Both the position numbers and the translations under genes were made by a program. 64,000 nt of DNA from Amoebophrya sp. A120 (taxonomy: Eukaryota > Protista > Dinoflagellata), in contig CAJINV010000002.1 in NCBI GenBank assembly GCA_905178155.1, positions 8,761,224 through 8,825,223 of the forward strand, in the 5' to 3' direction. Of the stretch, positions 18,324 through 59,556 are shown in pieces; the first letter of the stretch is position 1; every line of letters begins with the position of its first letter. The notes below the pieces were generated by a model. The model had not been told where the DNA came from. It did not search any database and saw nothing but the letters and a program-made list of their open reading frames with translations.

Positions 18324-21300
18324 TTACAACAGGTCGCTGTACTCGTAACCAAAGTGCCCGAGATGCACAAAGAAGTTTTCGTCATCTTCCTTAATCGGCG
18401 GTTCTTGCCCAAGTTCTGGCCGCATGTGCACGACACTTCTGCTGCCTACCCAATGCTCGTTTCCCCGTCCACGCTCTTTTGTCCCTGGACCGCCTGCAGG
18501 TGATGAAGGTGCAGCTGCTGCCTCTGACGTCGAAGAAGCTGATTCATCGTCGCCCTCTTCGGATGAGGCGCCGTCTGATGTGTCCTCCTCGTCTTCCATT
18601 TTCTGCAGTTCTACCGCACCACCACCGCCAGGACTAGGACCACAACTTCTTTCCGACTGCGATACTTCGGTTTCGGCGTCCGAGGTGGCGAGATCATCTC
18701 CAGGAGCATCATGTCCGAATACGTTACCGCCCCCAATCACCTGGTCGAGCAGCAGCCGGTGCCGGCTGACGATGGTCTTCATACTCGATGGTATGATCGG
18801 GATGAAAAACTCCAACGAGTACTTCATCAACCCCAAGATGCACAGCAAGAAGCAGAAATTGAACCAGTCTTCGCTCCGGCCGCCCACCTCCTGCTCAGGG
18901 TGGCTTTCTCCTGCTAAGATCGAGCTGCCATTCGACCCACTGATGCTCGGCGAGGACCCCAGTGCAGCTGCAGCACTTGATTCTGATTCAACGCTGTTCG
19001 TCGCCGCCGGAGGCTGAGACTGGCTAGCAGTACTGGGGATAACTCGGAACGTCCAGACGAGGAGTGCCGCGTTTGTCACCAACGAAAACCAGGAAACCAG
19101 CTCTAGGAGGTACAGCCACGAGCCAATTCCCACGCAGCGACGCGGAGTTGGGCGCCGGTGATACTTGAAAATCTGTTTTTAGACAAATGAATTTTGCGAG
19201 AGAGATAGTCAGCCGTTGGTCTGCATCATCCATTACCATTTATTCTACTAAACAGGTGTATACGTAGCATGAAAGAAGATCAGACCAGCTCCAATAAACG
19301 CTTTTTTCAGCACAGAAAGTTTTAGGATTTGCAAGTTGCGGTGCAAAGCACTAAATCAGACTGGTGCCAGCGAGGGTGTCATCATACGAGACCCTGAAAG
19401 ATACAATCTTGCGTGCTGGCTCCACAGAATTGTAACCACAATGTCTGTGCGTGAAAGCTACAAAAGCCCAACTGGCACCGTCATGACTCTTCAAACTGGC
19501 ATGCGTAATCACAACTAAAAAACCTCAATAAACGCATCCCAAAAATGCAAATCCAAATCAGACCAGCTCCAATAAACGCGTTTCTCAGCACCGGTAAGGC
19601 TAGCCCCCGCGAGTTGCGGCCCAGAAAGCTACTAAGACTGGTGCCAGCGAAGGTTGTCATCATATTAAATCGACAGTGACGATATGGTCTGTCGCACACA
19701 CGCGAATTACAATATACAGCCCCAAAACGGTACGGGCACATAATGACACTGCATAAACGAAATAGCAAGAATCAGACCAGCTCCAATAAACGCGTTTCTC
19801 AGCACCGGAAAGTCTAGCCCCCGGGAGTTGCGGCCCAGGAAACTACTCAGACTGGTGCCAGCGAAGGTTGTCATCATAACAAATCGAGATTTGGATTGAT
19901 GATATGGTCTATCACAATAAACATACAGCCCCACCACGGCACATAAGGACACTGCATAAACGAAATCGCCAGAATCAGACCAGCTCCAATAAACGCGTTT
20001 CTCAGCACCGGAAGGTCTAGCCCCCGGGAGTTGCGGCCCAGGAAACTACTCAGACTGGTGCCAGCGAAGGTTGTCATCATAGACATAAGAATTCAAGCTC
20101 GAAGCGACTTTCGCGTTCAAAACCCTAAAACGCAGAAAACAAATAGGACTCTCAGTACCTTGTAGCTGTCGATGCGTATTTCAATGAGCCCCAGAATCAT
20201 CGCGAAAAGGGGCGCCAGCGGAAACACGACGGAAAAAAGCGTGACATCGCCGAACAAAACCACGATCTCGACCCAATCCTCAAAAGTCCCGTCTAGCTCG
20301 TGGTCGCCGTAAGGCTGCTTATCCATCATGTCAGTGAGCAGCAGCTTCAGCGACCGCCACGGGTGTTGTTTCTTCGAAATCGATGTCGTATCCTTCACTT
20401 CCGCACCACTTTCCATCGGGGCCGCCTTCTTCCTGAGCGGACTTGTTTCCAACTCAACGGAGGTAGTAGTGCTTGCGACCTCCGATACAACAGTACAACT
20501 AGACTGCTGCTCGTCTAATGCGGTCCCCGCGACGAGCGTAGAACCAGCGTACGTTCTGCCAAAGTCCCGCTCCAAATCCCAGTCCGGCGCTCTCGGTGCT
20601 GTGCTGATGGGAACGCATGCCTTCGATTTATCACAGCTATCGCTGGTCTCGAAATGAAGCTTCACCGGCGAGAAGTGCTGCTGTTGTGCAATCGCGCCTC
20701 CAACCGGGGCGGCCACCGAGGCAACATCTTGCGGTCCTGCAGGAGCGCCGCTAGTGCGGTTGCAATCCCCTTCTTCATCAGCAGCGGTCGTCTCGGCACT
20801 ACTGCTGGTTGTGGCAGCTCCAGCTGGTGATCCACCAAACCTCCTCGACAGCTTCGCGGACACCACTGCACCTGCGGAAGAAAAGTTCGTCAAGTTGCAG
20901 TGAGTTCATATTTCCAAAAAGAAAAAAGATTGAAAGAAACAAAGTAACGCGTCCGTATTGCAAGCAGCACTCTCACGGCAGGCAAAATGAATCGTAGATC
21001 GGCAAGGACGACGGGCCAATTCCGAGTGAAGAAAAGCAAATAGAGTGGACCCAAAACAACGATGCACGCACTTCTTCGGCGCAAACCGTCTGTCAGCTCC
21101 ATGGTTTGACCCGGCAGTTTGGCCGCAGAGCGACCCTACGCAATGGCTTTTCGCAACAGCAGAGATGCTGTGCAAGAATCCAAGTATGCGCACCTGCCAC
21201 GACAAGGAATATGAAGCAGGACCGCGCAGGAGGCTTGCGCCGTCAACCACGCGATCTTTTTCTAGGACGCTACTGGAGCCGAAACACCACAGGGAGCACA

Positions 21301-24300
21301 GAAGGCCCAGAGGTGCTCGAAGCGAGTTCAGTATCGCTGTGCAAGAGGAAAAGTGCTGCACAGCATGGCATCCGAAATCTACATTTCAAATACACGTAGA
21401 TTCTACTCAGACATCTAAGGAAGTTTGTCCAGCATATGCAGCCGCGCCCGTAGGAGCAGCTGCTTACTCGGACACTTACTGCGAATGTTTGAGAAACGGA
21501 TAGACATTTTCTCAAAAGTTGTCATCATTTCGGTCTTGCTCGCACTTCTTGCTCTTGGAGGTTACACCTGTAGATCACCAAGGTTGCGCCAGTTTCGAAT
21601 GGGAAAAATCGAAAGACGACGTAGTATGAGCCGAGTGAAGGTAGACTGCCACGCCATACAGCGCGACAGTCTCCTAAACTCTTCTATTGGTTTCCCGAGA
21701 GGATCATAGGACGGAGGGTACAGAATAAAACCTTCTAACCTTCACGAACGCGGGGAGTGCAAAATGTAAATTTCTCTCAGACTGCACCTTGGCACTGAAT
21801 TATTGACAGATGAAAGGCAGACTGCTAGTTTATCCCGAAGCTCAGCACTGGAAATCTGTCAGCTCCATGGTTTGACCCGGCAGTTTGGCCGCAGGGCGAC
21901 CCTACGCGATGGCTTCTCGCAGCAGCAGGAGATGATGCTGCGCACGAATCCAGGAATGCGCACCTGCCGCGACAAGGAATATGAGGCAGGACCGCGCAGG
22001 AGGCTTGCGCCGTCGACTACGCGGACTTTTTCTAGGACGCTACCGAAGCCGAAACACCATAAAGAGCACAAGAGGCCCACGGGTGCTCGAAGCGGGTTCG
22101 ATATCGCTGCGCAAGAGGAAAAGTGCTGCACAGCATGGCATCCGAAATCTACATTTCAAATACAAGTGAATGTCAGACATCTAAGGAAGTTTGTCCAGCA
22201 TGTGCAGCCGCCCCCGTAGGAGCAGCTGCTTACTCGGACACTTACTGCGAATGTTTGAGAAACGGATAGACATTTTCTCAAAAGTTGTCATCACGGAGGT
22301 TTAGATCAACAGCGAAGTCAGAACGATTTTTCGGGAGTGCTCAGTTCATCGAAATGTGTGCTGCATGGTTTGACTCGGTGGTTTGGCCGCATAGAGTGAC
22401 CTTACACATTTTAGCGCTCCCACCGCGACAAGGAATATGGAGCAGAAGACATCAGGAGACGACAAAAAAGCGCCTCAACCGAAGTCCCTTGTTCTGGGAC
22501 GCTACCGAACCCGTAAAACTACGAAAATCAGCTAATATTGCTGGTTAGTGCACGGGAAAACTCGGCATCGCTGCACAAGAGGAAAGTACTGCGCAGCATG
22601 ACATCCGGGTAAATTTCTCACGAGATCGCCTTGTTTTCGGAAGAGCAAACAGACATTTTCAGACATCTAAGGAAGTTTGTCCAGCATACGCAGCTACAGC
22701 ATTCACTGCAGCCACTTAGTAGGACACTTACTGCGAATGTTTGAGAAACGGTGTATGCTGTATCTCAAAAGGTGTCATCATTGGAGAAAATGCACTTACC
22801 GCGAAAGACCCAATTTTAAAATCAAAATCTATCGCTCGTCTCGCAGAAAAACAGGAAACCAGAGCCACTACATTAAAGATCAGTACCATACAGCTCCCAA
22901 ACGTTGCTGAGCGCCTGGATGAGAAAAATCAGCGCGTAGTTGAACTGCAGCTCTTCAACACACGCCCCTCCGTCGCGCACCACCTGCCCGCCCTCGACAC
23001 AGCCTTCCACGTAGGTTTTAGCGAAACCGATGTAGAAGAACACGTTGAAGTTGTTGATAAAGCGGAAGATGAAAAGCTTGACGATCAGTGCGTTGCAAAA
23101 CCGTCTCCGGCTCGGGTAATTCTCCCACTCGTTAAGCGTTCGGGCCAGCGTGTCGCCGAGCGTGTTGAAAACATTGATTTGGATCGTGTTCAGCCAACCG
23201 GTCGAAATTTGAATGAACTTTACGGCGAGCACGTGGTCAGGGGTCGTCTGTCATTTTCATTACGTTGATACTAGTAAGTTGCATCACAAATCAAAACCGC
23301 TGAGAGCCGAGTCGTCATACTGGACGATGTGAACTAAAAATTTAAAGTTAAAGATTGAAAGCAATGTGTCGCGTTGATAGTGATACGGCTTCTGATTTCA
23401 CAGAGCAACCGACCGTGGAGACACGAGGTTATTGTGCGCGTCAAGCGGCACCCGAATCGACCAAAACTGTCACTGAAACGGGTGCTTGACAAAATGACGC
23501 GGGAATGGACGGTTCCTCTCTTGAATGAAAATAGCATCACCAACTGATATCGAAGGTTCCGGCGGGCGCGGAAAAGCCGGCGAGACAAGAAGAGAACCAT
23601 GCCACTGCAGGGGGAAGCTAAGCGTGCGAAAACTGGATCGACAGTCAGTGCCCGAAGGAAAGAGGTAACCTCCGATGGAGTTCGAGTGAAGGAGAGAGTG
23701 GATGACGATTGTCAGGCCTTGATAGTGATGCGGTTCCCCACAACACAGAGGTAAGCCGACCGTGGAGAGACCCCGAACAATTTCCGCGTCAAGCGGCACC
23801 CAAGTCGACAAGAAATTGCCACCGAAACAGGTGTTTGACAATATGACGCGGGATTGCGGTAAAAAGTACTGGCGATTTCGCCGAGGCAGAATGACGCCAA
23901 AGAGCAAAGTACAAACATGTGATGAGGCGGCGAGGGCGACCTGTGTCGAAGACAGCGTCGGTGTCAGCGGCGCTAGGGGGCGCGTCCTGGTCTAAACTGG
24001 TGGGAAGCAGGTGACAGAAAAAAGAAGCGAATGACGATTGTCTGGCCTTGATAGTGATACGGTTCCTCACAACACAGAGGTAAGCCGACCGTGGAGAGAC
24101 CTGAAACAATTTCCGCGTCAAGCGGCACCTAAATCGACAAAAAGCTGTCACTGATACAGGTGTTTGACAATATGACGCGGGAAGTGCACACATACCTTAA
24201 AGGTGGACACAGACGTCAGCAAAAAAACGGCTTTCAACCCAAAACAAAAGTCGCTGTGCGACCTCGACACAATCGCCAAGGACGTGCGCAGGTCACTAGA

Positions 24301-27300
24301 ACTTTCCAGACCATTGCCCATCCTCGTCGAGATCAAAGTGCTAGTTCTCATGCTGTGAGGCAAGAGAACTGAAACACCTGTTGTTCTAGAATCCATGAAA
24401 CGAGGAAATACGTACACGAAAAGTCGTACTTCCTAGCTGAAGGATTCGGACTCGGAGTCTCCCACTGTTTTTAAAGGAAACAAGGCAAATCGCATACGTT
24501 TTCTATTGAGAAAGGACGCAGTTGCAGTTCGCTACAAGGTTCCAATATCAGCATTAGCATGGACAATGTTTCGAGTAAGCATCATGTGAGTTGGACTCAG
24601 CCAGGGGCACTCGGTAATTTGGTCATCATAATGGAACAACTGGTAGTGCAACTGCGAATCCTAATCCTACGTGAGCAACCATTGTGCACTGAAAGTATCT
24701 AGCTGTACCTGATCCACGCCATACGTTCGTAGCTTCGCGATCAGCAACACGAGCCAGCAGCTAACAAACAGCAAGCTGCTCAGCAGCACCCAGCTGATCA
24801 CCTGTCGAAAGGTCCTCACCGATCCCGGAAAGTGCAGCGCGCCCGGCTCACCGGTGATCGGCGACCGGATCGGGATGCCCGTAAACCGAGGTCTCAGCGG
24901 CTCCACATACCCCAATTGCTTTTCATTTCCGTTCGGAAGTCCGTACCACTTGATCCGCAAAAACGACTCATTTCGCCGCCAATTCGCTAAGAAAACCGAG
25001 CACCACAGACTCGTGCAACAGCTGTAGATTCCGAACGCGGTCGAGGGAATTTGCCACAAATTGCTGTCCTCCTGGGAAGTCTTGGTGATCGTCCAGGAAC
25101 GGGCGAACGATAGCTGTATTTTTTCGCTTGGATTTTGTTGGGAGACGATCTCGCTAGCCGACATTTAGAGGCGCACTCACTCAGTCTTCCACGTGATCAT
25201 TTACTTTTAACAAAATTGTGAACTGTGCCCCCTTCTTCAGTACCTTCGAGCGCCTACAGACACGAATTTATGTGTCTCCAGATCAAAAATGCTCGGAGCG
25301 GGGTTTCTCCAAGCGAAGGCTCCCGATGCGAATTACTAACACGCTTCGGGAACGCAGCGCTCGAATAAGACCATCGCTCCTCAAGCGCATGATTGATGCC
25401 AAAAAGCGGAAGGCTGTCAGACGTGGGCTAAGCGCATTTTAATACAGCAAGATAAACTACAAGTGCAACGATTACTAAAAGTTACACCTGCACATCTCGC
25501 CTGCGCTCGTTGCTTTAGGTCACGCGCTCGAAGTGACTATCTGAGAGAAGCAGAGTAGCACAAGCGGTGGCGGACCAAAGTGGATCAGTAAAATTTTCGT
25601 AGTGTAGAGCAGGTCGGATCAGATTTCTTGCAGTGTGATCGGAATTTTCTCGAATTGTTAGTCACACGAGCAACGTACGCTAGCATACAATTACACAGCG
25701 GCTAAATCATTTACAAAAATTATAGACGGTGCAATTCCCACCCGATCGACTGGAAAAGACTCCTCAATTTAGAAAAATCACAGACAAATTTACCGCCACC
25801 AACAGCAGCCCCAGCACCGCGATCGGGATTAACCCCCGGGCGAAAAACGCCACAAAAGCGAAGTAAAACGCCAGGGACGGCCCGTAGTAGTCGTGGAGCT
25901 CTTCGATCGGCACTTTGAAGGAGAGGTCTTCGCACAGAAAGCATTTCAGACACTTGAACAGGTCCTTCATCCCCCATCTCCTCCCTTCATCATCCATCAT
26001 TTGCACGTATTCGCCCCAGGTTGCGATCGAAAACTTCCTGATTTTCGTGTTGCGCTCCGGGTTATCGAGCGCAAAGTGCGCTTCCAGCAACTGCTCGTCC
26101 TCGAGAAGCGAGAGGTTGACGGAGCGCAGTGCCACGTCGTAGGCTAGACGCACGCGCTGACAAGAAGTGAACATTGACATGCTTGTTGGTGTTGTTGGTA
26201 AAGGATTTCGGATTTCACCATCGGCACGGTATTCCTTTATCCCATTTATTTCGTCGTTGTACTGAAGGTGCAGGTTCTGTGCGGTGTGGACTCCTCTGTG
26301 CACCCAGAAGCAGCGCGGAACTTCAAAGGCGCCGACGTGCGCAAAGAGCGGCAGCCCGGATTTCGGCAGGTTCAACGATGTCCAGAGATTATGCAGCAGT
26401 TGGTGCTTGTCCTTCTCCTGTGCCTGATTTCGACCCGCCTGGTCGACGGCGGAAATCGCCTTCCCGGTGGTTTCCATCGCGAAGGCGGCTGCGTACTTCC
26501 GGTTGACTTTTGCCAAGATCCCGCTAGGATCGCTGCTAGCGTCGTCCTTTCTTAAGTCAAGGTAGAGTTCGTATGCCTTGTCGTAAATGGACTTATACGC
26601 TGTTTTCATCACACCGCCTCCAGCAACATTAGCACCGCAAACGGATCCACTAACTGACCCACTGACCGACTGGGTGGAGTGCTGGCGAAGAATCACACGT
26701 CTCTCCAGCACGCCGGCGTTCTCCAGTAGCCTTTTCGCTTTTTCGCCCAAGCCCCCGGTGGACTTTTGCAAAATCTTTCCTGTTGGCGCAAAGATCCACT
26801 TACAGCTCATTTTCTTGACCCACTGCATCGGAAGAAAAACAGCCTCTTTGATTCTCATCGCAGCTGAAGGCTGTTGCTCCTGTGCGGATATCCTTCTTCG
26901 CGTGCTCCTGTCAGTTGCAGTCGAGGACGAGGAGATTCTGCCCTGCCGGTTTATTCCATTGAGAATTTCATTGTTGTTTCTGCCTGCAGTCACAACCCGA
27001 TTCGGACTGTCGCGATTTCGCAGCGCTGGGTTTGTGACTTCTTTGCCACCGTGCTGTTCAACAGAATCTCCGTCCGCACCAAGAATCTCCGGTGAGTTTC
27101 TAGGTTCTGAGGGGTCCTGGATCAGTATGTCGTCCAGTCCCACGGCAAACATGTCGTTCCCGAACTCTTCGATGACGTTTCCCGTCTTCGCGATGGCGTT
27201 TTCCGCTCGGTGCAACAAACCCCTCGCGGTGGATTTTGCCATCTCGACCGGGGAGGAAAAAAGATGTCCTGCGGTGGAGCGGAGCTGATTATTCATGTTC

Positions 27301-29402
27301 TGCCCTCCGGCTTTGTTGCGATTCCTGTTCGACGACGCCGTCGACGTGCGCGGCTTCCCTTTAGCACCTCCCGGTGTGTGGTCTGACGGGGAAAAAGCCG
27401 TTCGGGAGAGCATGCTCGGCTCTTCGTCTGGAATAATCGAATCGATCCAAACTTCGCTCAGTTCCGCCCTGTTCTGCGCTGGAGAACAGGCTGACCCGAT
27501 TTGTCTTCGTTTGGTTGCAGAATTTGGATTTGCAGCTTCATGACGCCGGCGCGAGGCAGCAGATGACATCTTCCCTGGAGATAAATTCAAACTTGATGTC
27601 TCCACGTCAGCTCCATTTCCGTAATCGATGGACATGTCCACTCCGCGCAGCGCGTCGCCGAAAAACCTGCGAGTGAGATTCCGGAGCGATTTCGACAGCT
27701 CATCGTCGTACAGTGCGGAAATGACCGAATCCACGGAATCCACGGTCTGTGCCTTTTCCAGCTCTCGCTGGTAGTACGTCAGCGCCGCTCGTGCGCGAGC
27801 AAGTTGAAAGCTGGTTCGAGTTGTACAACTTTGCAGCGATGCGGTTGAGAGTTGTCGTCCTTTCTCCAATAAACGGGTTGTCTTCCGAACATCCGCCTCC
27901 TCTTTCTCCCACTTCGAGACCACCTCCTGGAGTTTCACGCCGATGTTCAGGTAGTTCCGCTGCCACGGACGGCTCATCACATACGCCAGCGAGTAGAAGG
28001 TCCGCGGGTGACAGGGCTCGAACGCCTCGATATCCACAATCCGCGGGTCGAGCGCGGCAATCTGCCCCTGCCGCTGCGCTTCTTTGAAAAGGATCGGCTC
28101 GGAAGTGGCAGATGAATTTGTGTCACCGATAATCGTAGATCCCGTGCAGCTCGCTTGCCCCGTGGTTCCAGTCACGTAGCTAAGCAACAAATACATGCGC
28201 TCCACGTCCACTCGCACCGTTTCCACCTTGAATCCGATCTTTTCCAGGTTCCAGACGAGGGCCTTCCGAAGCACGTAGAGCAGCGCGCGGCTGTTGGCGA
28301 CCGTAGTAAGGTCCTCCAGCTCCTCGGGGTCGAGAACGTATTTTTGCTGCTTGTCTGCTTCGCTTCTTTTCAGCGCCGGATTAGCGGAAGGTTTTCCCGC
28401 GAATTTTTTCGGCGATTCCCGTTGCAGTTCTCTTGCATATTCTTCTGCTTTTTCCTCCTCCACTTCTTGCCGCAGGAGCGTCAAAAAGTGCTTCCGCATG
28501 CGTTCCCAGGCGTAGACGAAAACGCCCCGCTCAAACGAAACCAGCGCCGCTTTCTCCCGGCTGCACTGATACAGGTCCGGCTGGGTGAACACTTTTGTGT
28601 ACAAACTCGCCACTTTTTCCGGACTGCAGCTGTAGTAGTGCGCTCTGTTTTGCAGCCCGAGGCTGTTCGTTAGCGTGGCCATCAAAGTTTGCTTGTTCAC
28701 CTGGATCGAGTCCTCATGCGGCAAAGCAATGCAGATAATGCGCTCATACGAGGCGGTACAATCATCTACAACTTCGTTCTGCGAACATCCTGTCCGTTGC
28801 CGCTGCACGCTGCCTTTTGAAAAGGTTTTAGACGCTTGTCGATTTTTGCCTGACGGCCGGGAGAGGAGCGTCGGTCCCGCCGTCGCATCGCTACTGTTCG
28901 AAGGTTCGAGGCCGAGAAACACGTGAGAGAGACTCTTCAGAAACACCGTCGTGGATTTCTGATACAAATGTGATGAAAATGGTGCGTTCTGCCCCTGCGT
29001 AGCTTCTGCGGCTCCGTTCTTCATCTTCCGGTCGCCTTGATTTCTCTTCGCTTTTTCTTGTTTGCCGGCTCTTCTACTCAGGTCGCCAGTGCTGCCTGAT
29101 GTCGGTGTCGGACCAGTCTTGCTCCCTTGCGTTCTTTCTACCGACGATATAGGCCCCTGCTTGTCGCCACCCAAGCGGCCGGCACCCGATTTCTTCTCGA
29201 GCATTCCCGACTGCGGAGCCACGTCAACTGGCTGCGATGATTCCTGCGCTGAGCTTCCATCACCGGCAAAAAGTTGCCGCGGAGCGACGATGCCAACGGG
29301 CAGGGATGCCGATTGTTCAGATGCCGCAGCACCATCGTCTAGGCCGAAACGCACTGGGCTCAAGTGCTGCCGCTTCAACTCCGAAATCCGGTCTTCCGGC
29401 AT
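18324..29402 (-). CDS. Anoctamin / TMEM16 family Ca2+-activated channel or scramblase; 5 exons, about 1978 aa; snoRNA host gene
   Basis: Exons 29402-25794, 25113-24709, 23247-22887, 20871-20159 and 19172-18324 join through four GT-AG introns into one frame (5937 nt). Family motifs: YYGxxLAFYFAF, FLANWRRNE, RPRFTG..SPITG, WENY, KLFIFRFINNF..FFYIGF, EDWVEIVVLFG.VTLFSVVFPLAP..IEIRIDSYK, RRPTP..GIGSW. Confidence 0.92.
19280..19385 (-). ncRNA. C/D box snoRNA, double guide to 18S rRNA (copy 1 of 4, most divergent)
   Basis: Minus strand ATGATGA (C) ... GCTGGCACCAGT-CTGA (D') ... GTGCTGA (C') ... TTATTGGAGCTGGT-CTGA (D). Guides are complementary to conserved 18S CUGGUGCCAGC and CCAGCUCCAAUA. Confidence 0.85.
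19558..19663 (-). ncRNA. C/D box snoRNA, double guide to 18S rRNA (copy 2 of 4; D' box is CTTA)
   Basis: Same boxes and both 18S antisense elements as the other copies. D' box is degenerate. Confidence 0.85.
19772..19877 (-). ncRNA. C/D box snoRNA, double guide to 18S rRNA (copy 3 of 4)
   Basis: C, D', C' and D boxes intact; 11- and 12-nt 18S complementarities. Confidence 0.88.
19975..20080 (-). ncRNA. C/D box snoRNA, double guide to 18S rRNA (copy 4 of 4)
   Basis: Nearly identical to copy 3. Confidence 0.88.
21088..21375 (-). ncRNA. U17: U17/snR30 (SNORA73) H/ACA processing snoRNA, copy 1
   Basis: 5' hairpin closed by GGATGC/GCGTCC, H box AGAAAA, then a 3' hairpin with m1-like ATATTCCTT and m2 AAACCAT above a GCTTC/GGAGC basal stem, and ACA plus 3 nt. 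Confidence 0.85.
21407..21528 (-). ncRNA. U14: U14 (SNORD14/snR128) C/D snoRNA, copy 1
   Basis: ATGATGA ... domain A ACATTCGCAGT (pairs 18S ACUGCGAAUG) ... domain B TTCCTTAGATGT-CTGA (pairs 18S ACAUCUAAGGAA; Cm414-equivalent). Confidence 0.92.
21854..22145 (-). ncRNA. U17: U17/snR30 H/ACA snoRNA, copy 2
   Basis: Close paralogue of copy 1 with H box, m1, m2 and ACA conserved. Confidence 0.85.
22173..22294 (-). ncRNA. U14: U14 C/D snoRNA, copy 2
   Basis: C box GTGATGA, domains A and B, D box CTGA. Confidence 0.92.
22352..22608 (-). ncRNA. U17: U17/snR30 H/ACA snoRNA, copy 3 (shorter, divergent)
   Basis: H box AGAACA, ATATTCCTT, AAACCAT and ACA retained while the intervening helices diverge and shorten. 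Confidence 0.8.
22659..22781 (-). ncRNA. U14: U14 C/D snoRNA, copy 3 (divergent)
   Basis: C and D boxes and domains A and B invariant; internal hairpins differ in sequence but keep pairing. Confidence 0.9.
23362..23503 (-). ncRNA. H/ACA snoRNA, copy A of 3 (predicted 18S Psi1290- and possibly Psi1181-equivalents)
   Basis: Hairpin (CGCGTCA/TGACGCG), H box ACAATA, second hairpin, ACA plus 3 nt. The 3' pocket CTCCAC / ACTA brackets 18S UAGU-[U]G-GUGGAG 14 nt from the ACA. Confidence 0.8.
23707..23853 (-). ncRNA. H/ACA snoRNA, copy B of 3
   Basis: Same architecture and pocket strands; hinge is AAATTG, a deviant H box. Confidence 0.75.
24036..24182 (-). ncRNA. H/ACA snoRNA, copy C of 3
   Basis: Same architecture and pocket strands; hinge is AAATTG. 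Confidence 0.75.
24252..24448 (-). ncRNA. H/ACA snoRNA, snR37-like (predicted LSU Psi2944-equivalent); 3' end uncertain
   Basis: Hairpin GAATCC/GGATTC with pocket TTCAGCT / CGTTTC pairing LSU GGAACG-[U]G-AGCUGGG. H box AGAACA is 15 nt from the pocket top. Candidate ACA at 24257-24255. Confidence 0.7.
24548..24629 (-). ncRNA. C/D box snoRNA, snR53-like (predicted 18S Am796-equivalent)
   Basis: ATGATGA ... CTGA ... ATGATGC ... CTGA. D guide TCCATGCTAATG is complementary to 18S CAUUAGCAUGGA. D' guide CGAGTGCCCCT can pair with 18S GGGGGCAUUCG using G-U pairs. Confidence 0.85.
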
Positions 29403-30296: not shown

Positions 30297-31304
30297 TCAC
30301 CGCAACGCGGCTCCTAAAATCGCCGCGCCCGCGAGCGCCCCGATGCCGACACCCACGGCGGCCCCAACCGCAATATCCTCGTCGTGACGGCGGCGTCTGT
30401 GGTTGTAATTCGCATGATGCGCCCGGTACGGCTGATGATGCACCACCTGGGGCCGTGGGGAAGCGTACATCACCGCCGGCTGTGACGCCGGTACGACAAC
30501 GGTCGGCTGTGGCTGTTGCGTCATGATGGTGCAGGAAGGTGTCTGCATCACCGAAACGGAACCGGCTGCACCGCCGCCCGCGACGACGACCTGTAGTAGA
30601 ATCGAAATAATGGGGGTACGGTACGCATTTCTTCTTACAGTCAGCACAAAAATGAAGTAGAAGTAATGAAAGAATACTGGCGCTCCAGGCGAAGAATTCA
30701 CAACGACCTGCGGCTGCGGTGGTCTCGGCTGCGCAATCGGTACTCTCGCTCCTCCGGTCATTGGTTTCAGAGGCACGTCGTATGTAGTCGTCGTTGTCGT
30801 GGTCTGCTGCTGCACCTGCTGCCCGAGCATCGGAGGTGGTTGCGGTTGCTGCTGCATCGTCGGTGCTGGCTGCTGGTACATCATTTGTGGTTGCTGTTGC
30901 ATTTGTGGCTGCTGCTGCATCATTTGTGCTGGCTGCTGGTTCTGGTACATCATTTGTGGTTGCTGTTGCATTTGTGGCTGCTGTTGCATCATTTGTGCTG
31001 GCTGCTGGTTCTGGTACATCATTTGTGGTTGCTGTTGCATTTGTGGCTGCTGTTGCATCATTTGTGCTGGCTGCTGGTTCTGGTACATCATCATTTGTGG
31101 CTGCTGCTGCATCATTTGTGGTTGCTGTTGCATCACTTGTGGCTGGTTGTGCTGTTGCATCATTTGTGGTTGCTGCTGCATCATTTGCGGTTGCTGCTGC
31201 ATCATTTGGGGCTGCTGCTGCGCCACCTGTGGCTGCTGCATTGTCATCTGCATCGTCACTGTTTGCGGGTGCTGTTGCTGCTGCATCATTTGAGGCTGCT
31301 GCAT
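30297..31304 (-). CDS. Gln/Met/Pro-rich repeat protein with a C-terminal Gly/Ala hydrophobic tail
   Basis: ATG at 31304; probable in-frame 87-nt GT-AG intron 30677-30591; C-terminus IAVGAAVGVGIGALAGAAILGAALR. Confidence 0.75.
   Translation of the reverse strand: MQQPQMMQQQQHPQTVTMQMTMQQPQVAQQQPQMMQQQPQMMQQQPQMMQQHNQPQVMQQQPQMMQQQPQMMMYQNQQPAQMMQQQPQMQQQPQMMYQNQQPAQMMQQQPQMQQQPQMMYQNQQPAQMMQQQPQMQQQPQMMYQQPAPTMQQQPQPPPMLGQQVQQQTTTTTTTYDVPLKPMTGGARVPIAQPRPPQPQVVVNSSPGAPVFFHYFYFIFVLTVRRNAYRTPIISILLQVVVAGGGAAGSVSVMQTPSCTIMTQQPQPTVVVPASQPAVMYASPRPQVVHHQPYRAHHANYNHRRRRHDEDIAVGAAVGVGIGALAGAAILGAALR
30845..31304 (-). repeat. Coding tandem repeats (QQQPQMM heptads and a 60-nt unit repeated about 3 times)
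   Basis: MMYQNQQPAQMMQQQPQMQQQPQ-type unit with 60-nt periodicity at about 30877-31100. Confidence 0.9.
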
Positions 31305-43460: not shown

Positions 43461-46400
43461 TTACATTCTGAGAAGGTCGGCCTTTTTCACACCCTTGACC
43501 ATTCGCAACAAGGCTGCTCTGTTGTCTGCCATGTTCGAGCCGGATTTTGCTAGCGCCTCTCGCATCTGCGCCCTTCGCTCCGCGACTTCGCGTGTCTTCT
43601 TTTCTTTTTCCCTTGCCGCGGCAATGGCGTTTTCCCGCTTCAGCACTTCCGATCGCTTCTGAAAAATGTCCAAAAATTCGTCGTGTGCGTAGGTCTGGTC
43701 TTCTTTCTTCTTGTTCAGGTCTGTTAACCCTTCCCGCACCTTGCTCCAGAAGTAGTCGATGCTGTTGCCTTTGCGAAAACCCCGCAGCGCGGACTCGGGG
43801 AGCCAATTGGCGAGGTCAGAATCGGACAGAGGCTCTTCGTCCTCTGGTCTTCTGGCATCTTCTGAAGGATGCGGATCCGCGCGACTACTAGCAGCTCCAG
43901 AAGCAAATGCGGGGTATCTTTTCATACTCGGATGTTTATTTTGCGTTGCTGTTATGTCCTCTTCGTCCGGACTGCTTTCCAGAAAATCGTCGCGATTTGC
44001 AAGACGTTCCAAGCGCGCTCGTGAAGAAGACGCTGTGCCTCTCACTTCTGCTTCGGCTTCTCCTTCGTCGCTGGAAAGACCCAGGTCCTGTTCGCACTCT
44101 TCCTCTTGTACGTCCATCGCTGCCGTCGCCAGAACGACGTTTTTTGCCACGACCGAACGGGTGCGGAGATTGTCGGCCAGGGCGTCGAGTTCGTCGAGTT
44201 CGTCAAGCTCTTCTTCCTCCTCCTTCGTCATGGGATGTTTTACCTCGTCCGCTAGCGCATCTAGATCATCGAGGTCGTCTTGTTCTTCATTCTTACCCTC
44301 TGGCTCAACAAGGTCATCGTGTTCAACGTCATGATCTTTACCTAGCAGCTCTCCGGTACTGTTGTTAACACTATCAGCGAGGAGGTCTAAGTCGTCAAGC
44401 TCCTGCTCATCTTGGCTCTCATCATCATGTTGATCACCACCTTCTGGCTTGTTCAGATCGTCCGCGAGGAGATCAAGGTCATCGAGGTCGTCAAGCTGTT
44501 CGTCTTTTTCGGAATCAGCATCTTCTTGTAGCAGCCCGTCCGCGAGAAAATCCAACTCATCCAGCTCGTCGGCCACACCTTCTGGTTCTGCTGCGACTTC
44601 CTTACCTTTTGGCGGCCGGTTCTGTTGTTCTTCGGCATCTTCAACATCCTCGTAGTCCAGAGTGACAGGCTGCTTCGCAAGCTGATGTGCTGCGCCTGAT
44701 GAAGACGAAGAGGGTACTAGTATCTCCTCATTCTGCTCTCGTCTTCTTAGCGGTCGACCTACTTCCTCGAGCTCTGTGGTCATGGTACTGCGAGAAGCAG
44801 CTGCGGTCGTCGTGTCAGCGTCTTTTCTAACACTAAGATCCACTTCATCTTGAAGACCGCCAGCATCCCCTTCTGGTGGGAACTCCACTGCCTCTGTCAA
44901 CTCCTGTAGTTCATCGCGCAACTGCTGTAGTTTCATCAATTGCCTCTCTTTTTTCCTCTTCGTGCTCGGGTGCTCGTACTTTTGCAAGTGGTTCATTAGC
45001 CGCGCGATCTCTCGCACATTTTTCTTGTGCTTCTCGTCGTCCTTGCCCAACCTGGGCGGCAGCTCGTCCTCGAGTTTTCGGCAAACATGGTCGAAAAACT
45101 GCGACAGCTGCACCAAATCGTCCAAAACAGAATTATGGTGCACGGCCTTGCCGCCCTTCAGCTGCAGGTGCTGCTGGTGGCCCGGCAGCTCCATTTCATC
45201 GAGTTCTTCATCGTCCTCAGCCTCATCTACTTCATCACCATCTTCATCTGACTGATCTGGATCCTCGGTAGTACCACGCTTCAAAGATGTTTTTTCCTGT
45301 TGCGGAAGAGCGTGTTCTTCCGGAGGAAAGATTTTGGCACTGCTGCTGCCGGAGGCGGGGGCAGCCCGCGCCTCAGAAGCGGTGCTGTTGCCCGCTGCAA
45401 AAAGTGGTTCTTGCAGATTTTGTCCCAAAGAAGAAGAGGATGAGGCCGAAGCTCCTCCAGCTTCAGGTCCTGCTCCTGCGCCGGCAGATAGCGGGGAAGT
45501 TTTTTGCCTCTTCAGGTCCGGACTAACACTTCCATCCTCGTCGTCGGGAGATACCACTGCTCGGCCGTGTGTATTTTTGCCCAAAAGAGACGGAGGCGAG
45601 ACGCTGGTCGTGGGAGGGGGGGCATCCAGGGGTTGCCAAAGCTGCTGCGCCGGGCCTTGTTCGAGTTCTTGCTCTTCTGGGGCTCTTTCCGGAGGTGATT
45701 GACTTTTCATTGCGGCAGGCTGTCCGTCTTTCGAACCCGAAGTTGCAATGGGAACAAGCTGCGGTGCTGCTGGTCGGCCTTGCTGATCCTGATGCTGCGG
45801 CGATAAAGCCAGTCCTGTTCTACTAGCTGTCGCCAAGTCGCCCGGAAATGTCCCTGCCGCGACAACCTGCGTCCGCTGCTGCCCATTGCTTGGTGCAGGA
45901 ACCAGAGGCACAGAAAGTGCTCCTCCAGGCGGAAAGCTAGCGGATCCACTACTTGCGCTAGCAGTTCCGGGAAGGGTCGTGAGAAGCTGCTGCGGTTGCG
46001 CAACAAAGGCCGCAGTAGAAGAAGCGCTCGCGGAGGCGCCAACCAGCACGCCACCCTTGCCCGGCATCGCTGTAGTGGCGAAAGGTCCACTCACGGTACC
46101 TGGCTGCACCTGCTTCCCCTGCGTCTGCAGTGGAAGCATTCCTTTCGCTGCCGCGAGCTGCTTGTGCTTCGCCTGCTGCTGGAGCATGTAATAGTAGCGC
46201 TGCTGGTCTGTCATTTTTCCTTTCATGGTCGAGGGTCCGGCAGCAACTCCAACACCTTTCGCCTTCCCCGCAGCGGCTGCCTGCTGCTGGACAAACAACT
46301 GCTATGGCAGTGCACAACTCCCCCTCCCCCTCATTTGTATTGCATGAACAGCAATACAAGTGTCAGCAAGAATACAGGTTTTGCATGACAAATTTGAGCT

Positions 46401-47053
46401 GGATTGTAGTGCTATTTGGGCTACCAGAACTTGTGATGCAACCAGTGCAGAGAGCCAAGGCGTAAGTGAGGCATTTTGCATGACAAAAGAGGGGGAGGGG
46501 GAGTTGTGCACTCTCATAACTGCTGTTGCTGAATCGCAAGCTGCCGTGCTGTCGGCGCAAAACCTCCTGGTGGTGCGCCTGGCGCAACAGGAACAGCTGC
46601 TAAGCCGCCAACGCCAGAAGCTGCAACTGCTCCTGGCTGCTGTTGTAGTACTGTTCCTTGTGGTACTAGGTGACCCGCGACGCCCATACTACCTTTCAGT
46701 GCTTGTGCAGCCACTGCTTGTTGCTGCAGCATCAGCTGCTGTTGAAATTGCGCTCGGTGCAGCACATGCCCAGTGGGTGGCTGTTTGGCCTGTTGCGGTT
46801 GTCCACCTGGTAGCAGCATACTATTGCGAGCGGGTATTGTAGCAGCACCGGGTACAGCCTGTTGGGCTTGCAAAAACGCCGGATGATGTAACCCGGGTTG
46901 AAGATGCGGTGCTGGGAGTCCCACTGCGGGAGCGGCATTCGCTTTCGCCGCGGCCGCAAGTCTCGTGTTTCGTGCATGCGGAACTGCCTTCTGCTTCGCA
47001 TTTGCCTGCTTGGCGGCACCAGAGGAGCTAGAAGCAGCCTTTTTTGGGGGCAT
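43461..47053 (-). CDS. Hypothetical protein (about 1120 aa) with a Gln-rich N-terminus and five DxLDxLDxLAD repeats; split by an introner
   Basis: ORFs 46514..47053 and 43461..46298 fuse in frame (IQQQQ-L-FVQQQ) after removing the 214-nt element plus one 7-nt direct repeat. Confidence 0.8.
46304..46517. mobile_element. Introner-like / MITE-like element with terminal inverted repeats and a 7-bp target-site duplication
   Basis: TIRs ATGGCAGTGCACAACTCCCCCTCCCCCTC and GAGGGGGAGGGGGAGTTGTGCACTCTCAT; direct repeat AACTGCT at 46297-46303 and 46518-46524. Confidence 0.9.
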
Positions 47054-48166: not shown

Positions 48167-50940
48167 TCACATCATGTAGATGTTGCTGAAGTGAATGGCC
48201 GAGAACCTTGCGCTTTCTTCCTGGCACTTCGAGAGCATCATGGACGGTTGGTCGAGCATCAGGTAAAACTCCCGCTCTAGTGACCTGAAAAAATTGATGA
48301 CACTTACTTTGAAATGCATACTGAAACAAAAAAAAATTCAACATGATGCGTTGTCACTGTACTACAAACAAAAAAAAACATCAAACATGTTCTAAACCCC
48401 ACGCAGAAAAAGTACCTTTTCGCGCAGATCCAGCCTCTTTCGTGCTCTTTCAAACACACTTCCCGGTAATTGCAGTCGGAGTTTTTCGCAATTGTCGAAT
48501 GCAAACACTGCGCCAAGTACAAGTCTTTGTCGCCGTTTTGCAAATACTCCATCGTGTTCGGCGTGTTTACCTGCGACACGGTCAGCCGTCCGTTTTCCTT
48601 GTCGTCGTCCTTGCCCCCGGCACCCGAGCCATCCGCATTTCCGTCTCCCGGGGAGCTGTTGCCGTTGTTATTACCACCCGCCGTGTTGGACGTACTTGTG
48701 CCGCCCCCGGTAATGACGCTCGCCACAAGGTTGTAAACCCGCGATTGGGCGGACGCGGCTTGCTCCTTGTTTTTCTTCTTGCCGGACAGGGTGAGTGCGC
48801 CGTTTTTGTTCCCCTGGTGCGCATTAGTACCACTACCAGCTCCCCCGCCTCCGAGCAAAGTATTGCCGCTAGTACTCCCGCCCCCGAAGGCGGCGGAGAA
48901 GACATTTCGGCTCTGGGAACTGTGTCCGGTCGAGAAGTGGTTGGAGACCCGGAGCGCCTGGTTCGCGTGATTGAAGTAGAGAAAGCGGTACTCATCCTCT
49001 GCCGACATTACTAGGGAAAACTGCTTCTCGATAATCGGCACGAGCGTGGATAGATTCTCGCAGAGCTCTGGCGACGTGCTGTATTTTTTGATCGCCTCCA
49101 GTAGTCGTGCGTCCACGTTGACGTTCTTGTCGAAAACCAGCAAAAGTAGAACTCCGTGGTAGCAGAGCGCAACCAGCTGCCCCTCGGCGTTGTTACTCGG
49201 GAGAAACACCCGCGGGATGAACAGATTCCGATTGCTGGTCGCCGTGCTGGAGGTGTCGTCCGAGCCGAACAGGTAGCAACCGCTGTTGTGCGGCTGCGCG
49301 GATTTTTTCCTCCCAGCAGCACCTGTTCCGCTCCGCGCCGAGGGCAATACCGTGGCGGCACCGCCGAACAAGGTCGTTTCGATCAGGTTTGCCGCGGAAT
49401 TAGTGCTCGCACCCTCGGCGGCCTCGATCAAGTGCGATCTGCCGAACGCGCTGGAATGCGAATTGTTCGACGTGGGAATGCGGCCGTAGGGCGGCTGGTT
49501 CAGCTTCTCGTTCGAAACTTGCCCATTAAACAAATTAACGAGGTAGGAGTAGGCGACCTGGTTAAGTGTTGGTTGAATTTTTTAGACTTGACCATACGGT
49601 AAAAAATGCAGCTGACATCGATTGGCTCTGCCATAGATGTAGTTGCAGCCTGACGGCGATAACACTATGCCCTGGGACAACTTGTCCCAGCAACCATCTG
49701 TACGCAGCTGGCTACAAACATATGCTGCATGTGCTATATAACACTAGTATCATGTAGCAATCTATTTTCACATGAAAACCGCCACAAGTAATCTGGCGCA
49801 CTCTCTGAGTACCTTCATGTCCTCCAGATCCATGCCACTGTAGATGAGATGCGCCTTGTAAAACAGTGCGCAATTTCGGTACTCCACGCCCAGCATTTCT
49901 TTCAGTTTTGCCAGAAATGTTGCGATAGAGACGTAGGTGTTTCGTTCCACTGGTCCGTAGTGAAACCCATCGAGCTGGTAGAAAACACCGTTCGCCAACT
50001 GCGAGTCGAGCAAGTGGTGCGTCAAGGTTTCCAGATACGCAGGCACGAGGTCCTCCAGCAGGTCTGCCAGAAGTTCCCTTTGCTGCGACCTGGTTTTCAT
50101 GCTATGGCTGCTCATTTTTATTCCCGGTGCGATTTTTTTCCCATCTTCCTTTGAGGAACTTGACGCAGAAGTAGAAGTTCCTTGGCCCTTATTGTCGCCT
50201 TCCGGCAAAAAGTGCCGCACCTTTCCGTGAAGCAGTTGAAAGATGCTGTAGAGGTTTTTCAGCACCGCAAGCAGCGTGTTCTCCGGAATGATGGTTTCCA
50301 GTGACTCGCGAATGTCGATCACCTGCTGTCTGTGGTTGGGTCTGCTCGAGCTATTGTCCTCGCCCTTTTGCCCGTCAGGTGGTCCACCTAGGCCGTCATG
50401 GTCTCCCCGCGTCCTCGGGCTCTGCTTGTTTCCACCGGGAACCGTCACGGTTTTACTTCCGACAGTCACCGCGGGGTGCTTCACGGCGAGCGCGAACCAG
50501 ATGTTGTCTTCCACCTCTTCGAACCCGAAGGAGTAGTCCTTCGTCTTCATCGACCGCAGCGAGGAACATCGCTTCTTCTTTTGTTTCTTTATTCTACTGC
50601 TAGACGAACTGCTGCCTCCCGAGCCAGAGGTGCCGGCTGCGGCAGCTCCCGCCGGAGCCGTGGTTTTCGAGCCCGCCGGGCTGGCGGTGGATACGGTTTT
50701 TGTTTTTGGCTCCTTCGCAGGAGCATCCGTCATCATGTCCCACTGTCGCGTGAAATCCACCAAGCCCTGCACGAGCGACACCTGATTCCGTTTCTCCTCT
50801 TGCGTCACCAAACCGGGGTGGTAATACAGAATCTTCGCGTCCTGGTGTGCGAATTCCTTTTCGTCGTCCTGCAAGTGCGCGATTTCTTCGGGGGATGCTT
50901 TCGCTGTCGGATCCCACGCAAAAAAGCAGAACTGCGCCAT
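48167..50940 (-). CDS. CCZ1: Vacuolar fusion protein CCZ1 (Mon1-Ccz1 GEF subunit, longin domains); 3 exons
   Basis: KILYYHP...QVSLVQGLVDFTR, EVEDNIWFALAV, LKNLYSIFQLLHG, YRFLYFNHAN, GWICAKR|SLEREFYL, and C-terminal HFSNIY. GT-AG introns at 49812-49558 and about 48414-48285. Confidence 0.85.
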
Positions 50941-52523
50941 GTTTGTGCTTTTAAGGAGGAACACTGCAGGTCCAAATCAACAGAATGAGGAGAAATAACT
51001 GCAGCTATTGTAAAGGCGAAATTTTATTCCTTGCTCTCGAGGACAATAATGCGCGTCTTTCTAAACCTAAAATCGTATTGTAAACTACTTCCGTTCCTGC
51101 GTCGATGTACAAAAGCGAATGGGCACCAACAGGATAACACGTGTTCCAGAGAGGTTTTGATGCTTGCAAGCGCGAAGCGGAAAGAAATGGCGATCGATTA
51201 TCAGCTGGTCAGCTAATTCTTCATCGATCCTGAGCTCGCCCCGTGCAGCGATAATTTTTGCGTTTCGCTAGTTCCAACACAATCCAGGGTATCTTCAGAG
51301 ACAGAGAGCTGCAGTATGCAAAAAGAATTCGAGAGCTTGATGCGCTTGCCTGTGAACATCGGTCTTCATCATCCTTGTTCCTCCAGATTGGAGGGCGTGG
51401 AAGAAGGGTTGCAGGTGGCATTTTCAATTGCCTGCAAATGAAAAAGTCGGGGGGGAAAGTACGGTTTCTAAGTACTTTCATACCTATGATGGGCAAGTAT
51501 GTTTTTCGACTTGGACAGATAGCAGCATCAACACTGCTTTTTCTGCTGGTACGGTTTTTGCAATCACAAAGCTCTTTACTGGAGGAACATTGGTATGCAA
51601 AAGCAAAAGTAGTTGTCATGTGCATATAGCTTGCTTATCATCCAGTCGGGCGATTACCGTGCGGAGTTTTCTTTTTTTTCTGATACACGAGAAATCGCCA
51701 TCAATATGAGTAGAATCGATAGGGGTGGAATTCGCTTAGTTATCAGTTAGAGGTACACAAAATACATATTTTTCTTCATACTTAAAAATTTTATATGCGC
51801 GGAAATTATATATATTATCACGATCGGAAATAGATACAAGTGGCCGATATGTTGTACGAATTTATTATCATTGGAACGACTAGAGCAGTACTTGGTGCGG
51901 TTTTGACCTTGTAACTGATCAGGTGCCGAGCTTGATGCTATTTTTTCACGACCGACTACGATAGATCTCTACGTCGTTGCTTGAGCTTCATGATCCTTGC
52001 ACTTTCTATGAACGCGGCACATAATTAAGCGTTTTTTTTACGAGGATGCGGCCCCCTGCGATATCTACAACTAACAGCCTAGTGCTTTTTGACTCAAGAT
52101 CTGTGCTGCTGCGCACAACCATCGAGAAAAGGCTTGCAAGACGGAGAAATTATATAAGTTAATGCACCAGCACGAAGCGCGATGGCATTTCGACAGCGGA
52201 TATCTTCCCACCGCTGCGGGATGCGTTTATTTTTTTTACTTTTCAGTTGTGCTGTCAGCTGGGTGCACATCATTTTTGTTGTGAATTTACTACACTGAAG
52301 TTGACTGCTATGCTTTCGCAACACAGAAAGCGGATACAACATGCCTCGAAGCAACGCAGAGTAGTGCTTTTGTTGATGTGTCGATGTGGATGCGATCAAG
52401 CTAACTACGGAGTAGAAATTACATCACGCAAGACAATATCAAAAATAATACTACTTCTTGTGTTCTTGAAAGTGAAGTTTTTTTTGCATTACAAATCTGC
52501 ATGTTAATCCGAGCGAAAAAAAT

Positions 52524-58888: not shown

Positions 58889-59468
58889 CTGATTCAAATT
58901 TTAAGGTCAGCACTGTTTGTCATGCAGATTTCAGTAATCGTGAACAGTCAATATGCATAATCACGCGGACAATAAAAAGCATGCATTTGCTATGCGCAGC
59001 GCCATCAAATAATACTCGCGTCGTCCCATGTTGCAGAAGCCAACCGACAAATTGCTCAGAGGAGAAGTCGACTGTGGGTGTATCTGATAAGAAGACTATA
59101 AAGATGCGAAATATTTTCCGACACGCCGAGAAAGGTGCAACAAACTAAAATCGCCAAAATATGACATGCGTTTTTTGGTACAACATAGATGCTTCGAATT
59201 TGTTGGCTTCTTTTGCGCAACACGGTTTTTATTTCCGGACGGACAAATTCGAAACAGTCCTGCCGTCGAATTGTTTCTGCTAAAGTACGCGCAGCTCAAA
59301 AAAGACAAAACGATGCGCAAATCGACAATAAACAACTCAAACGCGAACAATCGCTGTGAGCTAGCTTTTTTGTGCAATTTTGGATGTGCCACTTCTATGC
59401 GCAAGTATCATGCGCGATCAAAGTGCAGCGACGCTGCGTGCAATCATGATGCTGGAGCGCGAAGTAAA

Positions 59469-59556
59469 AGCTCCACGCTCGAGCTCCACGCTCGAGCGTG
59501 GAGCTCGAACGTGGAGCTCGAACGTGGAGCTCGAGCGTGGAGGTCCAACTTGGAGC
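59469..59556. repeat. 13-bp tandem repeats in head-to-head orientation forming a palindrome
   Basis: AGCTCCACGCTCG twice, then CGTGGAGCTCGAA-type units four to five times; perfect 30-bp palindrome at 59479-59508. Confidence 0.9.

Follow-up and report, generated by a model that had tools for sequence, protein, structure and literature searches.

Results

An Anoctamin Gene with snoRNA Genes in Three Introns

The window analysed here is a stretch of 64,000 nucleotides (nt) from the dinoflagellate Amoebophrya sp. A120 (contig CAJINV010000002.1, positions 8,761,224 to 8,825,223); all coordinates given below are those of the window. Its minus strand carries an anoctamin gene of the TMEM16 family (18324..29402). 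Introns 2, 3 and 4 of this gene contain 15 small nucleolar RNA (snoRNA) and snoRNA-like elements of six families, all on the host strand. Eleven of the 15 are well supported, namely three U14, three U17/snR30, four copies of a two-guide box C/D RNA and one snR53-like C/D RNA. The other four are H/ACA-like RNAs, whose assignment rests on structure and conservation and whose targets are unproven. An earlier note, made from the letters of this DNA alone, had proposed at least 15 snoRNAs, distributed as 5, 6 and 4 over introns 2, 3 and 4 of an anoctamin gene, and had called these introns unusually long. Counts, host and intron lengths were all borne out, and a candidate for a 16th RNA was found in intron 3.

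The host gene was recognized by five minus-strand pieces of open reading frame (ORF) between 18324 and 29402 which matched the Pfam family Anoctamin (PF04547) in profile order. When the five exons, the N-terminal one of which is long, were joined, an uninterrupted frame of 1978 amino acids (aa) was obtained. The deduced protein showed 66% identity to protein P0001 of Amoebophrya sp. A25 across 439 aa. For exon 3, the protein search revealed a single relative among 113 candidates, a protein of Amoebophrya sp. A25 with 80% identity. Contigs of the sequencing runs X3–X6, which stem from a single sample of a single study and whose status as RNA is only guessed, skipped exactly four minus-strand segments of 680, 1461, 2015 and 986 nt, all with GT-AG borders. 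These segments are intron 1 (25114..25793), intron 2 (23248..24708), intron 3 (20872..22886) and intron 4 (19173..20158). The gene is intact, and its transcript is spliced. Since introns of three Amoebophrya strains have median lengths of 208–247 nt (PMC7789003), introns 2–4 count as long. Intron 1 contained no supported snoRNA.

Intron 2 holds one C/D RNA, one H/ACA-like RNA which also occurs in a metagenomic locus (L050), and a second H/ACA-like RNA in three copies. Three U14–U17 pairs, that is six elements, and the further candidate are located in intron 3, and intron 4 contains four copies of a C/D RNA of 106 nt. An intronic polycistronic cluster is defined by two or more snoRNA genes per spliced intron on the host strand, and such an arrangement was found here. 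Self-comparison and profile searches showed that four repeat families are restricted to these introns. The copies of a family were 74–99% identical; for U17 the values were lower (55–86%) because of insertions and deletions. The spacers between elements measure 33–203 nt, the gap between U14 and U17 in intron 3 measures 33–54 nt, and the distance from the 5' splice site to the first element is 73–100 nt in introns 2, 3 and 4 alike. The statement of the earlier note that boxes and antisense elements are conserved while the spacers diverge holds for the old spacers, which are 36–44% identical, but not for two recently duplicated spacers (68–71%).

Two segments were rejected as snoRNAs. The first one (23266–23318), near the 3' splice site of intron 2, has a degenerate C box, no CTGA, no D box and a fold z-score of +0.77. 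The other one is an intron-4 spacer (19395–19500) with a fold z-score of +0.84.

At the C/D RNA of intron 2 (24523–24643), contigs of run X1 exhibited a 121-nt tandem back-jump. They also contained variant copies of intron-3 spacers, as well as U14 and U17 copies with other flanks (21090–22800). Therefore, the window may under-count the copies, or paralogous loci exist.

U14 and U17/snR30 in Intron 3

Pairing with ribosomal RNA (rRNA) was analysed using a panel of six other eukaryotes, whose rRNA occurred in contaminant contigs (six loci picked by length from 49), and not the rRNA of the source organism itself. The three U14 (SNORD14) genes are located on the minus strand at 22659..22781 (copy a), 22173..22294 (copy b) and 21407..21528 (copy c). 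In E-value mode Rfam assigned all three to SNORD14 with E-values of 7.3e-5, 1.5e-3 and 2.6e-5, respectively. Their scores of 32–38 bits did not reach the gathering score of 64, nor did any of the metagenomic U14 sequences described below, the best of which scored 61.8. Terminal C and D boxes were present in all three copies, and copy a in addition showed the A domain, a Y-like stem and rRNA duplexes. The A domain of U14 is complementary to the 5' domain of 18S rRNA (PMC3273799). In the window's U14 it formed 10 of 10 pairs with this domain in five of the six panel sequences. The D guide (B domain) is directed to a site listed as yeast Cm414 (PMC8351944, Table S3). An extra 18S-antisense element of 10 nt paired over 9–10 nt just upstream of the methylation site in all six panel sequences, and single folds revealed a 5' hairpin which can mask it. 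With its C/D boxes, its A domain, its Cm414/Cm462 guide and a stem between the A and B domains the RNA corresponds to U14/SNORD14/snR128 (RF00016); it differs from that family in the low bit score and in the masking hairpin. An automatic alignment of 13 U14 sequences yielded no consensus structure in RNAalifold.

The U17/snR30 (SNORA73) genes follow at 22352..22604 (copy a), 21854..22141 (copy b) and 21088..21371 (copy c), also on the minus strand, with approximate 5' ends. Their architecture consists of a 5' hairpin, an H box, an internal hairpin, a 3' hairpin with the motifs m1 and m2, and an ACA box. The m1 and m2 motifs agree with Table 1 of PMC7601244, m1 being the C. elegans variant. In all three copies, and in the metagenomic loci L054 and L057, m1 and m2 in the 3' hairpin are followed by ACA. 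The pattern of m1, m2, 7 nt and ACA occurred three times in the window, each time in intron 3, and never on the plus strand. Each motif paired over 6 of 6 positions with the corresponding motif (rm1 or rm2) of expansion segment 6 (ES6) in four of the six panel sequences, which is the pairing by which U17/snR30 is described to act (PMC12095548). In the 3' hairpin 8 of 29 pairs were changed on both sides among five sequences, a value that none of 500 shuffles attained; the structure was derived from the same five sequences. Rfam recognized copy c only, with a faint match to SNORA73 (E 8.6; 13.1 bits against a gathering score of 74). Thus, m1 and m2, the H box, the internal hairpin, ACA and ES6 pairing are shared with U17/snR30/SNORA73 (RF00045), whereas the score of 13 bits and the multiple copies in a single intron, each immediately after a U14, are not. 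In Xenopus, unlike here, U17 copies are distributed among six introns of a single gene.

Box C/D RNAs in Introns 2 and 4

The C/D RNA of intron 2 (24548..24629, minus strand, 82 nt) resembles snR53/snoR53Y. Its D guide pairs with 18S rRNA at the site of yeast Am796 (site equivalence according to PMC8351944, Table S3). Its D' guide forms a weaker, G-U rich pairing around position 880 in the plant 18S sequence used. A homologue with 74% identity is present in L054. The four C/D copies of intron 4 lie on the minus strand at 19975..20080 (copy a), 19772..19877 (copy b), 19558..19663 (copy c) and 19280..19385 (copy d). All four were matched by the Rfam family Afu_190 with E-values between 0.008 and 0.47, and guide duplexes were formed; copy d is the most diverged, with its guides intact. 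The D' guide, which is common to Afu_190 and snR40, is directed to G565 of the plant 18S sequence, presumably G562 in yeast numbering, and the D guide to a G located 24 nt downstream. An equation of Afu_190 with yeast snR190 was dropped, the guide pairing with 18S rRNA. All five RNAs possess C, D', C' and D boxes with a guide of at least 10 nt before D or D', the D' box being degenerate in one of them (copy c). The guides thus share their sites with snR53/snoR53Y and with snR40/Afu_190, and each window RNA adds a second guide to a site outside the table of Arabidopsis, yeast and human 18S modifications: the guanosines targeted by the intron-4 D guide and by the weaker intron-2 D' guide are absent from Table S3 of PMC8351944.

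H/ACA-Like RNAs and a Candidate 16th RNA

The H/ACA-like RNA of intron 2 shared with L050 (24252..24447, minus strand) forms two hairpins (fold z-score −4.07) and is present twice in L050. Its H box is canonical in the window copy and not in the two L050 copies. Pocket scores of 14.5–16 were obtained for it at non-canonical distances between pocket and box, and a canonical scan missed it. A pairing with the 3' domain of 18S rRNA and with the helix near position 960 is predicted for this RNA and has to be regarded as uncertain. The second H/ACA-like family comprises three minus-strand copies at 24036..24181 (copy 1), 23707..23852 (copy 2) and 23362..23503 (copy 3). It shows the order hairpin, hinge, hairpin and ACA, fold z-scores of −1.1 to −2.6, and, in 4 of its 45 pairs, changes of both partners. 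Its pocket scores (10–12.5) lie within the control range. For this family and the C/D family of intron 4 no credible homologue was found in 17 metagenomic U14 loci (best E 0.077).

The candidate 16th RNA of intron 3 (21622..21745, minus strand) consists of a hairpin followed by an AUA box (fold z-score −3.62) and is possibly an H/ACA RNA. We regard it as a candidate because all five substitutions found in its stem (21646–21669) in a variant X1 DNA contig keep the pairing, one pair being changed on both sides. This contig also carries an insertion of two letters; the assessment of pairing covered the substitutions. The best pocket match of the candidate was to large-subunit rRNA of one panel member.

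In intron 1 two strong hairpins were observed (25280–25400, fold z-score −4.6, and 25420–25560). The top pocket score of the H/ACA scan, 14 with large-subunit rRNA, was obtained there as well (25658–25734). These may be further RNAs or chance.

Conserved Pairing with 18S rRNA

A guide was called when a CTGA word was preceded by a duplex with a score of at least 9.5 to the rRNA of at least three of the six panel eukaryotes. In introns 2–4 this applied to 11 of 30 CTGA words, which represent four distinct guides, compared with 9 of 371 elsewhere in the window, none of five in intron 1 and none of 14 on the opposite strand. These counts support the strand and the snoRNA identity given in the earlier note. 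On paper, a pairing with conserved 18S sequence does exist. Every credible target would lie in 18S rRNA, a bias noticed post hoc, to which two families contribute by definition as 18S-specific RNAs and from which the 16th candidate with its possible large-subunit target may deviate.

Related Loci and Changing Hosts

A scan of metagenomes with a U14 pattern yielded 17 related loci. Eight of them share the window's U14 subtype with the extra 18S-antisense element. L054 contains the A796 guide, U14 and U17 in the order of the window, among other C/D RNAs and with no evident coding exons. All five guides detected there are 18S-directed. A faint snR75-like Rfam match in the same locus would be large-subunit-directed, as we take snR75 to be. 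In L050 18S and large-subunit guides are mixed. In L061 a single intron of an RBM22-like gene, the best match of which is from Amoebophrya sp. A120, harbours U14 twice. In L057, where introns were read from the sequence and not from transcripts, U17 stands alone in one apparent intron; U14 shares another one with a tRNA gene (599–866) in an IMPDH/GMP-reductase-like gene, 2 kb from U17. The window and L054 show U14 and U17 linked in one and the same order; in L057 the two RNAs lie in neighbouring genes at a distance of 2 kb.

No anoctamin was detected by tblastn in any of the 17 U14 loci, and a metagenome scan with exon 3 gave 325 pattern matches, none of which was confirmed as a related anoctamin locus. 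The absence of anoctamin from the U14 loci and the RBM22-like and GMP-reductase-like hosts make the host look incidental. Judging from the sequences, the RNAs are conserved while their hosts change, and the role of the anoctamin gene is most likely limited to that of a transcription carrier. Viral contigs contained neither eukaryotic 18S rRNA nor U14.

Two side observations concern these loci. L051 (1–1307) contains eight U14 copies in tandem, some of them partial. In L050 (3925–4010) and L054 (4152–4239) U14 is followed by the same C/D RNA, which does not occur in the window; its D guide is directed to an 18S cytidine near position 1211.

Other Features of the Window

The longest ORFs, between 1306 and 63453, are all on the minus strand and form a unidirectional gene block. 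No Pfam family was found for 19 of the 21 ORFs tested; one tested ORF (49771–50976) contains a longin domain. Between two minus-strand ORFs an element at 46294–46527 has inverted-repeat arms of 51 nt which are 84% alike. It resembles, we presume, the inverted-repeat introners of Amoebophrya. Furthermore, a palindromic segment in which a 13-nt tandem unit forms a hairpin (59451–59542), a near-perfect palindrome of 47 nt (62463–62509) and a degenerate tandem repeat within an ORF-like region (30837–31302) were observed.

Discussion

Proposed Expression and Release of the Intronic RNAs

Our preferred explanation, to which we assign a probability of roughly 70%, is that the tandem U14, U17/snR30, C/D and H/ACA-like genes in the anoctamin introns are transcribed with their host, cut free and predicted to act on pre-18S rRNA. 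The snoRNAs are likely transcribed within the host pre-mRNA. From what is known of these families, core small nucleolar ribonucleoprotein (snoRNP) proteins would bind the boxes on the nascent intron, and an endonuclease, RNase III-like in yeast, would cut within the spacers before the ends are trimmed. Endonucleolytic release, also proposed in the earlier note, would be required because, with 4–7 RNAs in an intron, exonucleases by themselves would halt at the two outermost ones. In yeast polycistronic snoRNA precursors are cleaved by Rnt1 (PMC10557570). The released U14 and U17 would chaperone 18S processing, as they do elsewhere. The C/D RNAs may guide 2'-O-methylation of 18S rRNA at four positions, of which two are absent from the lists for Arabidopsis, yeast and human. 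Local tandem duplication would account for the copies.

Several observations weigh against this explanation. Mature forms of the RNAs were not observed. Among the possible RNA runs, intronic sequence turned up in one X3 contig only (189 nt, depth 3.5), which covers a copy b together with spacer and fits a precursor as well as DNA. The contigs of X4–X6 do not cover the introns, a gap given no weight here. The spacers of introns 2–4 form hairpins that have no cleavage hairpin or loop motif in common. Rfam, named as a check in the earlier note, gave matches below threshold (SNORD14 three times, Afu_190 four times, SNORA73 once) and no family at gathering score. Every rRNA pairing was scored on the six panel eukaryotes and not on the organism's own rRNA; the D guide of U14 formed 13 of 13 pairs in only one panel sequence, with 11–12 in the other five. 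Copies 1 and 2 of the three-copy H/ACA-like family have no canonical H box, the ANANNA hinge being present in copy 3 only. Pocket scores of 10.5–14 arose freely in control sequence; because the de novo scan is non-discriminating in this respect, we do not claim H/ACA targets. Finally, most of the 17 U14 loci are short contigs (1.0–11.6 kb), so the missing anoctamin is weak evidence for some of them.

The snoRNAs might be real and yet form nested polycistronic units whose transcription starts at one or more intronic promoters of their own and does not depend on the host pre-mRNA. L054, where three of the same RNAs occur without evident coding exons, fits this idea, and an ion-channel gene may be transcribed too weakly to supply U14 and U17, which are abundant RNAs. 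Clusters of Tetrahymena also have upstream elements before internal genes (PMC3273799). We consider such promoters unlikely, however: all elements lie on the host strand and are spread over three separate introns, they begin 73–100 nt after the donor site, which leaves little promoter room, and intronic snoRNAs of Ostreococcus are uncapped (PMC7671301). Quite unlikely, too, is a situation in which only some copies mature and the rest are decaying duplicates or intron remnants resembling sno-lncRNAs, so that no endonuclease would be needed. Pairs of snoRNAs in one intron do give rise to sno-lncRNAs in mammals (PMC11028025), and the further U14 and U17 copies with other flanks in DNA contigs could supply the function. 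Nevertheless, the internal copies keep their guides and C/D boxes at 75–81% identity while old spacers have fallen to about 36–44%, which points to selection on each copy.

A selected link between cargo and host, coupling ribosome synthesis to channel/scramblase expression or splicing at some parasite life stage, would explain why about 4.5 kb of intron is retained in a genus with short introns, and intronic snoRNAs are documented as cis regulators of their hosts (PMC11028025). We give it very little weight, considering that none of the 17 U14 loci contains anoctamin, that two of them use unrelated hosts and that the metagenome scan provided no related anoctamin locus in which conservation could be seen. 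We see almost no chance that misassembly or a repeat devoid of function explains the array. Because of the back-jump and the variant repeat contigs of X1, the number of copies assembled in the window may be wrong. Still, sequence differences between the copies reach 25% with the boxes conserved, other organisms have homologues, the flanking exons are spliced, and a collapse, if any, would under-count the copies.

Beyond release from the host, linked U14, U17 and 18S guides may constitute a syndinian RNA operon for small-subunit biogenesis, a cassette that moves between unrelated hosts, with release adapted to the unusual Amoebophrya spliceosome and the U14 hairpin acting as a switch on the extra 18S-antisense element. 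We offer this idea tentatively and consider it doubtful as a whole.

Comparison with Known Systems

The literature recognizes intronic snoRNA clusters as a category (PMC11028025, PMC12205218), and Ostreococcus possesses two of them, clusters 3 and 5 (PMC7671301). As in plants and green algae, several C/D and H/ACA RNAs per intron of a protein gene, tandem isoforms and the host strand are found here. Unlike those clusters, the present one belongs to an alveolate and extends over three consecutive introns with about 15 RNAs; it repeats a U14–U17 pair, its credible targets all fall in 18S rRNA, and its processing is something we infer. Chlamydomonas, too, reportedly has intronic snoRNA clusters.

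Among alveolates, Tetrahymena has U14 and U17 as well as a few intronic snoRNAs in non-ribosomal hosts, namely dynein and translocase genes (PMC3273799). Its snoRNAs are mostly intergenic, and those of Cryptosporidium are few and single-copy (PMC9465071); the available portions of these two reports describe no introns with multiple snoRNAs. The earlier note had considered a channel/scramblase host unexpected. This argument proved weak, non-ribosomal hosts being known from Tetrahymena and from Ostreococcus, where 33% of the hosts are ribosome-biogenesis and 18% RNA-processing genes and one encodes a nucleoporin (PMC7671301), and related U14 and U17 genes using other hosts.

The note knew of little description of dinoflagellate snoRNA organization; no account of snoRNAs for Syndiniales or dinoflagellates was found in the literature searched, in which subscription journals are thinly covered. 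The main text of the genome papers did not mention snoRNAs. New here are the lineage, the repeated U14–U17 pair and the 18S bias; intronic polycistronic clusters were already known.

Significance

The analysis reveals no new class of RNA and no new mechanism. Within the literature searched, this set of snoRNA genes seems to be the first from Syndiniales and dinoflagellates, and it extends intronic polycistrons of the plant and algal type to alveolates. The curated thresholds of Rfam miss the whole set, including U14 and U17 as RNAs of 18S processing. Lineage-specific methylation sites are predicted in 18S rRNA. Since introns of Amoebophrya are mostly non-canonical and U1 snRNA was not detected (PMC7789003), canonical introns that would yield snoRNAs offer a handle on splicing and RNA processing in this organism.

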